Part shown: piece after piece, positions 1 through 6,000 of the stretch
Numbering within the stretch: position 1 is the first letter of the stretch
Layout: each line of letters opens with the position of its first letter
From: a virus
Strand: one strand, 5' to 3'
DNA: 10,314 bases
UHGV virus genome: UHGV-0113241
Made by a program: the position numbers

Positions 1-3000
1 TGACGGGTAAAAAGTGGATAAAATAATTTTACCCACCGGATTTTTACCCATGCTCACCGTTAAGCAGATTGAAGCAGCAAAGCCGAAAGAAAAACCATAC
101 CGCCTTCTCGATGGTAATGGCCTGTACCTTTATGTCCCTGTATCAGGGAAAAAGGTATGGCAGCTTCGCTACAAGATTGACGGTAAGGAGAAAATCCTGA
201 CCGTCGGAAAATATCCGCTTATGACTTTGCAGGAGGCAAGGGATAAAGCATGGACTGCGAGGAAAGACATCTCGGTTGGCATCGATCCGGTAAAGGCGAA
301 AAAGGCTTCGTCTAACAACAATTCCTTTAGTGCGATTTACAAGGAATGGTACGATCACAAGAAGCAAGTCTGGTCAGTAGGCTATGCAACTGAACTTGCA
401 AAAATGTTTGATGACGACATTTTACCCATCATCGGCGGCCTTGAAATTCAGGATATTGAGCCGATGCAACTGCTGGAAGTAATCCGCAGATTTGAAGATC
501 GCGGTGCAATGGAGCGAGCCAACAAAGCCCGCAGAAGATGCGGCGAGGTTTTCCGTTACGCTATTGTCACCGGAAGGGCTAAATATAACCCGGCACCTGA
601 CCTTGCAGACGCCATGAAAGGATACCGCAAGAAGAACTTCCCGTTTCTTCCAGCAGACCAGATCCCTGCATTCAACAAAGCACTGGCAACATTTTCAGGA
701 AGCATCGTATCGCTCATTGCGACCAAAGTTTTACGCTACACAGCCCTAAGAACGAAAGAGCTTCGTTCCATGCAATGGAAGAACGTCGATTTTGAAAACA
801 GGATTATCACCATCGACGCCAGTGTGATGAAGGGCCGCAAGATTCATGTTGTTCCTATGTCAGACCAGGTGGTTGAACTTCTCACTACGCTAAGCTCCAT
901 CACTAAACCAGTATCAGAGTTTGTTTTTGCCGGGCGCAACGATAAGAAGAAGCCAATCTGCGAGAACGCGGTATTGCTTGTGATCAAACAAATCGGCTAT
1001 GAGGGTCTGGAAAGCGGTCACGGATTCAGGCATGAATTCAGCACGATTATGAACGAGAACGAATGGCCTGCTGATGCTATTGAAATGCAACTGGCACATG
1101 CCAACGGCGGATCTGTGCGCGGTATTTACAACCATGCGCAGTATCTCGATAAGCGCAGAGAAATGATGCAGTGGTGGGCGGACTGGCTTGATGAGAAGTT
1201 TAAAGTTAGTTCATGAAAAATGACATACCAGTTTATGGTATAAGTAGATCACGTGTATACTGTCAAGGTTCTCATTAACAATCACACAAAATAATCGGAA
1301 AATACAATGAAACACGTTACTTCTCTTGATGGAGCTAGAGGAATTGCCGTCATAATGGTCATGTTATTTCATTCTAATATACCTTGGGCATCTTTGGGGT
1401 GGGCTGGTGTTCCATTATTCTTTTGCCTTTCGGGGTTCCTGATCACATCAATTCTTGAGGAAGACAGGAAGTATAGATTTGCCGGGTATATTAAAAAGTT
1501 TCTAATAAATAGATCGTTGAGAATATTTCCTCTATTCTATCTATATCTTGCGGTTAATTTTGTAATAGTTAAATCAATGGGAGGAAGTACGGACGGTTAT
1601 TCTTGGTTTGTCACCTACTTACAAAACTATTACATTGGTAATAACATAACAACACCAGGAATACTTGGACACACATGGTCTCTAGCTATAGAAGAACAAT
1701 TCTATTGGATTTGGCCTATTGTAATATTTTTTATTCGCCCACCAAAGGAAGTATGTTTTTTTGTATTTCTTGTGATAATCTCATTAGCTTCTAGATATTT
1801 TATATTCAATATGTCTGGAGGTAATCCGTATATAACTAACGTAACTCTTATCAGTTGTGTTGATATGCTTGTCCTAGGCGCTATCTTTGCTCATATAAAG
1901 GATAGCAATAAAGCACCACAAATAGCCATGTTGACATTTATAGTTGGTTCTATTGTTACTGCATATGGCGTTATAAATATTGGGATTAATAATTTTTGGC
2001 ATCCAGAGCAGTGGGTTGGCAAGGGATTATACCTATTTACATCATTAGGGATGACATTCTCATCAATTATTTGGTTCTTATATTATTCATCAGGAAAAAT
2101 GACAGGCCAGCAACAGCCAGCAACAGCCAGCAACAGCCAGCAACAGCCAGCAACATTTTACAACTATTTATAACGACTTGTAACAAGATATTTAACTTAA
2201 AATTCCTTAGATTTACAGGAAATATAAGTTACGGCCTTTACATGTGGCACTTGCTATGTTTTTCAATAGTAAGAAAAATGTTTTCATTTGTAGGAATCAC
2301 AACTGATGGATTCACTTACATAGCTGCTTCATTTATTGTATCATATGCAGTTTCAATAGCATCATTTTACTTATTTGAGAGTTTTTTTCTTCGTTTTAAA
2401 GTAAAATCTTGCAGAGAAGGATTTATTTTAAGAAATTCAGTAAAATAAATTATATGTTCGGCATCGGTATTTTATACACTGATGCCGAAATATCATTTAT
2501 TCTATAGACATTCTGCTATTTGCAAAATCATAAGCATCTTGTGATTTAATGAATTGACAAACAAAATAGTCATTTAACCTAACTACACATCCAGATGTTG
2601 TTTTCAATGTTAACTTTACTGCGCCTGATTTTACTGCTCTCCCTACTCCAAATGTGTGTACCCATTCACCTGTAGAGGTGTATATGTTGCCAAGCTGATC
2701 TGTATCACCTGAGAACGATCCTGTAACATCACCTGATACAAGTTTAATGCTACATCCCCAAACAACATGGTAAAACTTAGCTATGTTAGCTGGTGAAATA
2801 TTCAATGATATCGTGTAACCGGCTGGAATGTTTACCTGTGCACATTTATCCGATAACGATCCGTCAGACACGCTTGAGCCATCAACGGTGCCAGTTCCTA
2901 AAAACTGCCATGGACCATCACCTGTAAATGACTCTGAATTAAGAATTTCGCCAGTTGGCAACCTTTTAACCCTTCCTTTTATTGAAGTGCCTCTTAAAGA

Positions 3001-6000
3001 TATATCTACGTTCTGCAATGCTCCAAAGTGTTGTATTGCTATCGAATCAACGTGAATGCTAGGACCAATGTAACCATCACAGACAACATCCCTTGCAATA
3101 ATCTTGCTTGTATCATCAATCTGAATATCGTAAATACCAGTAGCGCTATCAAATCTGCACCCTCTGGCTATTAAAGTAGAATTTATTAGTTCAATGTTAT
3201 TAAAATAGCACTGCTCAGCCACCACAGAAGGCATATCAACAAGTTTAAGTTGCCTTGGCTTCTGTACCACGCCATCAATATCAACAGTTTCGTCTTTAGC
3301 TACCAGTTCAAACCAAACGTTTGAAATTACCGGTGGAACAACAGGAGCAAGGTCATTACCATTCAAATATATACCGCCACCTTCGCATTGTTCCATGATG
3401 CAGTCCTGGATTTTTATTCCATCAATTCCACCTCCTGGTGCTGATCCTCCAATCTTTCCATTTATATAAATGCAATATTTTTTTATTCCAGCAAAGTGAC
3501 AATTTCGCCATGAATCTGAACCTGCGTGCATATTATTTTCAGATTGCGCCTTGTGTCCGTAATTGCATTCAAGATAGCTACAATGCTTATATGTATTACC
3601 AATGTTTCCTTTTGGCTTGTAAACTCCAATATCAAGACCGTCAAAAGCAATATCCCTAAAGTTCCATCGGCCATCAAGATTAGACGATCCAAAAGCTATG
3701 CCAATTCCTTGTGGTGTGGAAATATTTCCCTCAATAAGGAAGTTCTGCGCGTGGCGATATTGCCATAATCGCGATGATTCAGATAGTGTAATGCTTGTCT
3801 TGCCAATGTCTGGCTTAAAGATAACATTATATCCGGTACCAATGAGATTGGCGTTTCCGGAAGTGTATTCTCCAGTATATGTACCAGGAGTAATTAACAG
3901 ATCGTCGCGATATCTTGTGATATCAATAGCCTCTTGTAGGTCTACGTAATTACCGGAGTGCTTGATATCATCCAGGTTGTCATAAACAGTTCTCTCACCC
4001 ATGCCAACTTTCTTGGCTCCTTCGCTCCCTGCGAGATCTGCTTTAAACTGCTCAAACTCTGGCCTTAGTTGGTCAGGGTCATACTTAAGCACATTAGGGA
4101 AATAGAACTGCTGAGCACCGTACGCATCATAAACAGCCATAGAATGGCCTTGCACGGTTACAAACTTGGCAATCTGTCCGTTATATACCGGGTAACCAGC
4201 AGCGTTAATGATGATTGGTTGCGATACAGGAACGTGAGAACCGTCTTCGTTCTCCACATAAACCTGAATCTGGTTTTCAGGATTTACCGGGTCCGTGTCA
4301 ATTTTACCGATATAAATTTTGCCATTAGCTACGGCTTTAAAAGAACGCGCCATAGTGAAGAGTTGCGAAGGCATGCTTACTACAACATTGGCTGTAATGT
4401 CTGTCATTTAATTTGCTCCGGACGTAGCAATGCCGGACAAGATGCAACTTGCCAAGCATTGCACTAATGTCAGTTATGGTTTGTTAATTATGAGATGAGT
4501 CTATGCAAAGAGATCTGTTGAATATTGCGTTCTACATATTTGGTTTTTGCACGTTCCTGGTGTTTGCGAAGCTATTCTGACAACGCATCAGACTTGGCAC
4601 CCTGCGTCATAGCGTTAATAGCCTTTTGTGCCTGCTGCATGGCTTTCTCAAAAGATGTTGATCCGCGTGAGGTGTTTGCCATTCGTAGCATTGCATTTCT
4701 GAATGGCTCACTCTCATAGGCGCGAGCAAGAAGGCCGTAGCTTACTGCTGCGCCAGTTGTCGCCGGGTTCATTGCCGTCCCATATCCGATAATGAACGGG
4801 ATGGTTTGCTGCCCTGTTGGTGTTGTTACTGCCGCTTTTGCAGCCTGCTGCGTGGATTGCAGATAGTTTTTTAATCCTTTCAGATAAGCAGCATCCTGCC
4901 CCTTAAATGTGATGCCAGTCTGGTTTTGCAGGATGTTAAGCTGCCGAAGGAACTGGTCAGGGGATCCGCCAGATTTCTCCATCGCCTTTCCAATGATGCC
5001 ATTGCGCATTTGCGCCCTGCCAACACGACCAACTGAGTTATACAGAGCCTTAATTTCCGATTTGTTCTTGCTGAATAGCATGTTGTTGACAACTTCCGGC
5101 GTCAGGTCGCCTTTCATGAGAACATTCTTCAGCCTGGTATTCTTTAGTTTCGCCGCTTCGTCAGCGTAGACGGCATTGGCCTGCTGATATTTACGAAGAG
5201 TATCATTGCCAAGATTCTGACCAATGGCACCATTGATATCGTCGGTCATCGCCTTGTAAACTCGCTGAATGGCAGCATCGGAACGGTTTGGTAACACTGG
5301 TCGCTCACCCTTCACGTCCATTCTGAACTGGCTGCGCAGATCGCTTAATTGCTTCAAATCCAGATTGACCGGACCATCAGGACCAGCATTGCGAACAAGC
5401 TCATCACGATATGACTGAAGTTTTGAAATAGTCTCGTTATCAGCAACCTTACCAAGCTTCTGCAGGTTAGATATTTCTGTATCAATCTGCTGAATTGCTC
5501 GCGCAGGTTGAATGTTTACTCCAGCCATAGCATTCTGAACCTGCTCCAGTCGATTACCGGCAGCACGACGAATTCCTGATGTTTTCGCTTTAAGGCTGTC
5601 AATAACAACCGCTGGATCATACTCCCCGAATTTATCGGCAAATCTCTGCACCAACTGACTTCTCGCTTCCTGTTGCGTTGCTCTCATTCCGCTTGTGCCA
5701 GCCAGGGGGATATTTTCCGCTGTCGTCTGCGCCATTTTCCCGACGCGGGAAGTAGGCTGTAACAGGTCTGTGGTGTGCAGAGGAACTCCTTCACGCTCTG
5801 CAAATCTGATAGCCTGCTGCGCTTCTGGCGCAATAGCACCACGAACGCCACGATAAGCAGCACCTAATCCACGTCCGGCAGCGTTAATAGCACCGCCAGC
5901 CAGCACACCAACGCCTAAATCGGTAGCAAGTGCTTCCGCATCATCTTTCATACTGTTTGCAGCAAGTGATCCAACTGCGTTTTCTGCGAGAAGGCGAGTT

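Follow-up and report, generated by a model that had tools for sequence, protein, structure and literature searches.

We analysed a tailspike gene and its surroundings in UHGV virus genome UHGV-0113241, a stretch of 10,314 nucleotides referred to below as the window. Taken as a whole, the data are probably best explained by a mosaic P22-like tailspike that has Escherichia coli serogroup O109 O-antigen as its receptor and is accompanied by a matching, convergently oriented acyltransferase gene, in a cassette that is a relic in the window. The tailspike is otherwise an ordinary, well-understood kind of phage gene with a plausible serogroup assignment. To our knowledge, no tailspike receptor domain has previously been assigned to E. 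coli O109; a literature search yielded no paper linking O109 to any tailspike, and neither O109 nor O25, Bp4 or LM33 is mentioned in a paper of 2023 that deals with the modularity of tailspikes and with E. coli O-serogroups.

The tailspike is encoded by a single intact open reading frame (ORF) with a GGAG Shine-Dalgarno sequence 9 nt upstream of its ATG. The gene and its parts are:

2497..4407, minus strand: tailspike gene, 636 amino acids plus stop (ORF list, Pfam, exact match to database protein P0001)
4069..4407, minus strand: head-binding domain, residues 1-113, the last residues being KYDPDQ (PF09008; G+C content 44.0%)
3907..4068, minus strand: linker or neck opening the exchanged module, residues 114-167, with short helices and low model confidence (predicted local distance difference test, pLDDT; starts of homologues)
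2953..3906, minus strand: right-handed parallel beta-helix, residues ~168-485, the presumed O-antigen binding or cleaving body
2500..2952, minus strand: C-terminal beta-sandwich resembling carbohydrate-binding modules (CBM), residues ~486-636 (pLDDT 91-98; Foldseek)
3573..3686, minus strand: internal recombination breakpoint within the beta-helix, relative to a 635-residue sister allele (drop in identity)

The protein is 100% identical to P0001 (NCBI and Logan; 75 member sequences), whose only public name is 'phage head-binding domain-containing protein'. NCBIfam holds no family for it, and Pfam detected the head-binding domain alone in the window protein. A preliminary description, made from the sequence by itself, had placed a P22/Sf6-type head-binding domain in the first ~113 residues, and this was borne out. 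Residues 1-113 cover the whole Pfam PF09008 Head_binding model (1-113/113, E=2.3e-67), differ from Sf6 gp14 (PDB 7sg7) by 8 mismatches in 113 positions (~93% identity) and from the P22 head-binding domain (2vky) by ~26 in 112 (~77% identity). There is good support for a conserved domain that would plug the spike onto the tail hub. The part downstream of it occupies 2497-4069, where 2497 belongs to the stop codon and 4069 is the final base of codon 113, which encodes the Q that closes KYDPDQ; this part is AT-richer, as had been noted from the sequence, with a G+C content of 39.9% for residues 114-636 vs 44.0% for residues 1-113. This shift is modest; the ejection-protein genes have ~50-51% and the acyltransferase gene 33.8%.

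When the full protein was searched with phmmer, all PDB sequence hits ended at residues 109-122. A profile built from 21 family members and compared with the PDB found N-terminal anchor domains of various tailspikes only and nothing on the receptor module. Sequence homology of residues 114-636 to the solved domains of P22, Sf6 and HK620 did not reach beyond residue ~122, which agrees with the earlier failure to match this part to the three receptor domains. Because similarity to Sf6 and P22 stops at residues ~113-122 and similarity to unrelated phages starts at residues ~120-128, the junction after KYDPDQ is a genuine module boundary, with a horizontally exchanged receptor module joined at residues ~114-125. 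The same switch in similarity upholds the proposal that KYDPDQ marks a modular exchange point.

Residues 114-636 were modelled as a monomer with AlphaFold2 (mean pLDDT 88.9, predicted template modelling score 0.85). The model consists of a poorly defined helical neck (~114-167), a right-handed parallel beta-helix about 320 residues long (~168-485) and a C-terminal beta-sandwich (~486-636). Residues 1-40 of the receptor domain have pLDDT values of 38-73, and helices lie at receptor-domain positions 4-12, 17-22 and 44-50. Foldseek matched the C-terminal domain to CBM22, CBM4 and CBM16 modules, with template modelling scores of ~0.56-0.59 normalised to the target. With the receptor model as query it found K2-2 TSP, Depo32 and the tailspikes of Sf6 (E=3.6e-7) and HK620; the best PDB hits were Klebsiella capsule depolymerases, and the structural alignments had 11-13% identity. 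The beta-helix-like character first read from the sequence after KYDPDQ is thus reproduced by the predicted structure, and the receptor module is predicted to share the fold class of classical tailspikes without sequence homology to the P22, Sf6 and HK620 domains.

We aligned 20 homologues with the tailspike (21 sequences in total) and found H294, D298, E367, D378, E398, E406, R418, D420 and D431 to be invariant or nearly so across the family. E367, D378 and D420 occur in 21/21 sequences and D298 in 20/21, among homologues down to 29% identity, which makes the conserved helix residues candidates for the active site. It is improbable, in our estimate, that the module binds a glycan without cleaving it or uses lyase or esterase chemistry instead of acting as an endoglycosidase. 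The conserved helix acids argue against this, as does the absence of SGNH and esterase domains from the Pfam and fold search results, which also led us to reject a G7C gp63.1-type deacetylase. The O-antigen tailspikes of P22-like phages are hydrolases. Moreover, L-RhaNAc3NAc, a named component of the O109 antigen, is a neutral amino sugar (PMC9676051).

The module belongs to a family that is known but poorly studied. Of its 523 residues, 9-522 were matched by PHROG 27367 ('tail fiber protein'; E=8.8e-133). By tblastn, the matches in deposited phages were Bp4 and PD38 (N4-like Gamaleyavirus, 65%), XT34 (58%) and, at ~40%, Golestan-type siphoviruses and LM33_P1-type T7-like phages. These matches cover 80% of the protein and all start at residues 120-128. 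Among predicted viral structures (BFVD), the PD38 tail fibre (63% identity, TMq 0.92) and the ES17 tail fibre (38%, TMq 0.90) were matched, so that homology to the family of PHROG 27367, ES17, LM33_P1 and PD38 extends over the full length of the module. Homologues have N-terminal anchors of ~20 to 390 residues ahead of the module, some of them carrying a TSP1/gp66-type N domain (PF18668) or a T7 tail-fibre N domain (PF03906), and a siphovirus context was seen in one locus (L017). An exhaustive HMMER search returned 298 clusters (50% identity) at E<=1e-3, 61 of them at E<=1e-30. Judged by these comparisons, the module is a portable cartridge common to podoviruses of three types and to siphoviruses, on at least four kinds of anchor. 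DNA encoding P0026, a P22-like relative with 39% identity, had no match in complete E. coli genomes.

The window module is an uncharacterised member of this family. Searches by sequence and structure with residues ~114-636 found no characterised tailspike at high identity, the best studied relatives being at ~38-40%. The purified ES17 tail fibre binds heparan-sulfate glycans on arrays, and the host range of LM33_P1 is limited to ST131-O25b E. coli (PMC7885116). The receptor domain had been called unrecognised; this holds in so far as it is not close to characterised tailspikes, but the exact protein is public as P0001 and has clear phage relatives. The Bp4 homologue (L007 2810-5532, KJ135004.2) is annotated as two adjacent coding sequences, 'tail fiber protein' and 'hypothetical protein', and that of PD38 as a single tail fiber protein feature, corresponding to one 905-residue protein in BFVD. 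The split annotation suggests a frameshift or a sequencing error in the Bp4 record.

We compared the receptor-domain DNA by megablast with 5,426 complete E. coli genomes, the set used for all genome counts below, and found it in four:

47-1826 (NZ_CP184839; broiler, USA): whole length at 99.0% identity; prophage at argW, with every late gene annotated, capsid through tailspike
LF4-1 (deer, China): remnant at argW, interrupted by ISEc33 and IS1
19AR0254 (human, New Zealand): no more than the first third of the module; prophage integrated at argW
P393-F10 (human, Philippines): likewise no more than the first third; prophage adjoining bioA/ybhB

Both O-antigen clusters examined, those of 47-1826 and LF4-1, contain wzx and wzy of O109. 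With O109 wzy as query, 18 of the 5,426 genomes were identified as O109, and the four carriers all belong to this group; the naive hypergeometric probability of this outcome is ~8.5e-11. Although the sample is small, we consider the O109 O-antigen to be the likely receptor because 4/4 carrier genomes are O109, compared with 18/5,426 overall. As a host association, this also speaks for the distinct O-antigen specificity that had been proposed for the receptor domain. Several separate acquisitions are likely, since the carriers differ in host, country and integration site and further prophages with the sister allele lie next to dacD. The O109 genomes found here are from isolates of poultry, pigs, cattle, wildlife and humans. 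The O109 antigen contains L-RhaNAc3NAc (PMC9676051).

We regard it as quite unlikely that the module targets another glycan and that the link to O109 is indirect, through a group 1 or group 4 capsule, a co-travelling polysaccharide or a host-mucosal glycan. Such a target would be in line with the binding of heparan-sulfate glycans by the ES17 tail fibre (PMC7885116), with the Klebsiella capsule depolymerases as best structural hits, and with the presence of the module in only 4 of the 18 O109 genomes. However, the carriers are O109 without exception although their hosts, countries and integration sites differ, the likeness to capsule depolymerases is at the level of the fold only, at 11-13% identity, and the gene next to the tailspike matches O-antigen acetylase families. 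P22-like phages with this head-binding domain (P22, Sf6, HK620) also classically use O-antigen.

The O109 gene clusters have a small acetyltransferase gene of their own next to gnd, annotated as serine O-acetyltransferase (L008 38998-39531, L009 41956-42489). The O109 antigen may already be O-acetylated at one position without the prophage enzyme.

The gene facing the tailspike gene and the elements associated with it are:

1307..2448, plus strand: Acyl_transf_3 (Oac/OafA-type membrane) acyltransferase, convergent with the tailspike gene and split over two frames (ORFs, PF01757, PHROG)
2106..2155, plus strand: perfect decanucleotide tandem repeat (GCCAGCAACA) in five copies within the acyltransferase gene (Tandem Repeats Finder)
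2441..2504, no strand assigned: hairpin between the tailspike and acyltransferase genes, overlapping both stop codons (RNA fold)

The two acyltransferase ORFs, 1307-2173 and 1996-2448, match PF01757 positions 2-255 and 255-323, respectively. The gene matches PHROG O-acetyltransferase and O-antigen acetylase families, and its relatives in deposited phage genomes are distant (<=34% identity). Its DNA was found in only two complete E. coli genomes, 47-1826 and LF4-1, which are those with the window tailspike allele, and it adjoins this allele in 8/8 contexts (the window, L001-L006 and L010). Strict co-occurrence, together with the match to O-antigen acetylase families, supports the view that tailspike and acyltransferase would act on one polysaccharide. 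As in an Oac-type cassette of Sf6, an Acyl_transf_3 gene lies adjacent to tailspike and integrase genes, but its frame is not intact in the window, where a shortened product of 288 residues is predicted. The pairing of the two genes that the preliminary description had pointed out therefore stands as regards adjacency and co-occurrence; it is qualified by the acyltransferase being out of frame here and by a sister tailspike allele that lacks it.

The acyltransferase frame appears to be set by the repeat. Strain 47-1826 has nine repeat units and an intact, in-frame gene for a 393-residue acyltransferase, and in LF4-1, with ~4 units (39 nt), the gene is in frame as well. In a modelled repeat series, three, six and nine copies were in frame and four and five copies out of frame. 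Copy numbers in Logan contigs are unreliable, as these contigs end in the repeat or collapse it. Because the copy number of the 10-nt intragenic unit differs between strains and sets the frame, the acyltransferase gene has the signature of a contingency gene and is a candidate for phase variation by slipped-strand changes of the repeat. The five-copy state in the window may be a short-read assembly error.

The convergent genes are separated by 48 nt, and the hairpin that spans this gap has a predicted folding energy of -25.1 kcal/mol (z -7.7), and 0/200 shuffled sequences folded equally well. From its fold and position it is likely a bidirectional terminator. It was not among the output of a simple terminator scan, and an Rfam search of the window returned no RNA family.

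A sister allele of the tailspike, 635 residues long and 75% identical, is present in E. coli 19AR0254 (L011 4947-6854) and P393-F10 (L012 4954-6861) and in the loci L013-L016. Over nt 361-810 of the gene, the two alleles are 92-100% identical. Isolated mismatches are found as far as nt 721, dense mismatches begin at nt 835 (window ~3573), and from there to the end of the gene DNA identity is about 60%, ranging over ~50-68%. This places a second breakpoint near codon 278 and makes the receptor domain a mosaic in its own right. At the protein level, all relatives at 58-75% identity show the same gradient: the first helix turns (residues ~154-273) are 58-100% identical and the distal helix and C-terminal domain mostly 50-70%, with the exception of P0011 (82-88% over residues 274-393). 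The prophages with the sister allele are P22-like, have an immI-like region (arc, mnt, ant) and occupy three different chromosomal sites, including one next to dacD in two further assemblies. The distal part of the sister allele was found only in its two O109 genomes. No acyltransferase gene accompanies it in 6/6 contexts (L011-L016).

The linkage of the acyltransferase to one allele raises the question of whether the tailspike requires an O-acylated polysaccharide, so that the enzyme would create or tune the receptor rather than block it. The constant association with the window allele (8/8) and the absence from the sister allele (6/6) are compatible with such a role, and so is the finding that it is precisely the distal beta-helix and the C-terminal domain in which the alleles diverge. 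Yet in the Sf6/Oac precedent the converting enzyme destroys the phage's own receptor, and a self-made receptor on lysogens would invite superinfection and cost released virions. We assign this reading a small probability only. A further interpretation is that the two diverged distal alleles form a matched pair distinguishing O-acylated from non-acylated O109, with the repeat-switched acyltransferase giving lysogens a reversible, bet-hedged receptor state. It is suggested by the acyltransferase gene, which accompanies the window allele in every case and the 635-residue sister allele in none, but we hold it to be rather unlikely.

In the mechanism that we favour for the O109 tailspike, the spike is most likely a homotrimer like other beta-helix tailspikes (the model here is a monomer). 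It would attach to the host's long O-antigen chains and cleave them endolytically, with the virion thereby descending to the outer membrane. E367, D378, D420 and D298 would be the candidate catalytic acidic residues on the helix, and O109 O-antigen of E. coli is the most likely receptor. The Acyl_transf_3 gene that faces the tailspike gene would act as a lysogenic-conversion gene that O-acylates the same polysaccharide in lysogens, as Oac does for Sf6, and the 10-nt repeat would switch it on and off.

Several observations weigh against this mechanism. The O109 link is a host association of four genomes that are perhaps not fully independent. Experimental characterisation is confined to family members at most ~40% identical (ES17, LM33_P1), and the reported target of the ES17 tail fibre is heparan sulfate, not a bacterial glycan (PMC7885116). 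The candidate catalytic residues were picked from sequence conservation, the model is that of a monomer, and the active site may lie within or between subunits. With five repeat copies the window acyltransferase is out of frame, and the cassette is probably not working here. Finally, the prophage in the window cannot make virions.

This last point concerns the state of the prophage. The window comprises the tailspike gene and the remainder of a decayed temperate podovirus prophage of P22/Sf6 type with an IntS/argW-type site. Its other annotated features are:

14..1216, plus strand: IntS-type tyrosine integrase gene at the prophage end (Pfam Phage_integrase, Phage_int_M, Arm-DNA-bind_3)
4572-6569, minus strand: gp16 ejection protein gene (Phage_P22_gp16 on the identical gene in Logan loci)
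6569-7963, minus strand: gp20 ejection protein gene (Pfam Inj_translocase)
7976-8635, minus strand: gp7 ejection protein gene (Pfam P22_gp7)
8741-8995, minus strand: lambda-Q-like antiterminator gene cut down to 84 amino acids

The three P22-type ejection genes gp16, gp20 and gp7 lie upstream of the tailspike gene on the same strand, and the integrase gene is found ~1.3 kb past the tailspike stop codon. This is the position of a P22-like (Lederbergvirus/Sf6-type) tailspike gene, downstream of gp7/gp20/gp16 at the integrase end, and the same order was found in 47-1826; the order argW-intS-acyltransferase-tailspike was seen in both 47-1826 and LF4-1. A repeat scan added nothing within the tailspike region. 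Overlapping the tailspike gene are ORFs of 69-83 residues, five of them antisense to it and one in a different frame of its own strand; they were unsupported and were taken as chance.

Beyond gp7, the 84-residue remnant of the Q antiterminator is followed by ninH, rusA and other nin-region genes. Agreement with the apparently intact phage contig L004 breaks off at ~8737, which falls within the 3' end of the gene that lies upstream of gp7. Because the window leaves the L004 sequence at this point and joins the Q remnant, we conclude from the alignment that the genes for lysis, head and tail hub are deleted and that an intact tailspike ORF has remained in a defective prophage. An independently assembled Logan contig (L003, 99.99% identity) has the same Q/gp7 junction. 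Another contig, L002, leaves the intact sequence at the identical base but joins a portal fragment; this joint may reflect either an artefact of the assembly graph or a deletion endpoint that recurs. In LF4-1 (L010 8001-10761), intS and the acyltransferase gene are intact, the tailspike gene is fragmented by ISEc33 and IS1, and the remaining prophage is gone.

The window gene may thus be a functionless relic of a decaying prophage, its intact frame reflecting a recent deletion. The Q remnant beside gp7 and the loss of the lysis, head and tail-hub genes point in this direction, as do the frameshifted acyltransferase gene and the tailspike gene of LF4-1, which has already been broken by insertions. 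On the other hand, the ORF matches that of the apparently intact prophage contig L004 at 100% identity, and its DNA is 99% identical to the copy in 47-1826, a prophage with annotations for all of its late genes. The conserved head-binding domain could also allow a helper P22-like phage to recruit the protein. We give a functionless relic somewhat less than an even chance; it would be compatible with the assignment made for the protein.

Tailspike receptor domains decide which serogroup a phage, an engineered tailocin or a lysin can attack. If the O109 assignment holds, the portable module, which occurs on P22-like, T7-like, N4-like and siphovirus anchors, would be a ready-made part for O109 recognition or depolymerisation and a typing marker. 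The acyltransferase gene with its frame-shifting repeat would be a rare E. coli example of O-antigen modification under simple-sequence-repeat control.

Sf6 gp14 with its oac/int cassette is among the closest known systems. In Sf6, a membrane O-acyltransferase gene (oac) lies between tailspike and integrase genes, and the window has a membrane O-acyltransferase gene in the same place. The head-binding domains are ~93% identical over residues 1-113, the tailspike gene follows gp7/gp20/gp16 at the prophage end, and the receptor domains fall into the same beta-helix fold class (Foldseek E=3.6e-7). In contrast to Sf6, sequence similarity is absent past residue ~122, the structural alignment having 11-13% identity, and the C-terminal domain in the window is a CBM-like sandwich. 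The window acyltransferase is at most 34% identical to those in deposited phage genomes and its gene carries a frame-shifting 10-nt repeat. The receptor of Sf6 is that of Shigella flexneri Y, whereas E. coli O109 is likely for the window spike.

The module itself has its closest phage relative in the PD38/Bp4 tail fibre (63-65% identity over residues 128-635, TMq 0.92), which has the same layout of beta-helix and C-terminal domain. The anchor is entirely different, ~390 residues preceding the module in P0016, a 905-residue homologue of PD38 length; PD38 and Bp4 are lytic phages, and the distal two-thirds of the module are only ~50-70% identical. The ES17 tail fibre and LM33_P1 gp17 belong to the same module family (38-40% identity over the whole module, TMq 0.90) and are its only members with any experimental characterisation. 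They have T7-like or other anchors rather than a P22 head-binding domain, and at ~40% identity a different glycan is expected.

CUS-3 is a P22-like prophage at argW, and its NeuO protein belongs to the hexapeptide-repeat family. In this E. coli K1 prophage, the integrase gene and the gene for the endosialidase tailspike flank neuO, a phase-variable gene that needs a repeat number divisible by three to be read through to its end and that encodes an acetyl-CoA-dependent soluble acetyltransferase (PMC8653822). CUS-3 and the window share the combination of an integrase, a polysaccharide O-acetyltransferase with contingency character and a tailspike for that polysaccharide. Unlike neuO, which has 7-nt repeats at its 5' end, the window acyltransferase gene has a 10-nt repeat in its last third. 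The enzymes also differ, NeuO being soluble and the window enzyme an Acyl_transf_3 membrane protein, as do the spikes, an endosialidase in CUS-3 and a beta-helix module here; neuO is phase-variable, and the window gene is a candidate for such switching. If the matched-pair interpretation of the two tailspike alleles were true, the cassette would be the O-antigen counterpart, built from unrelated enzymes, of the CUS-3 system of neuO and endosialidase for the K1 capsule.

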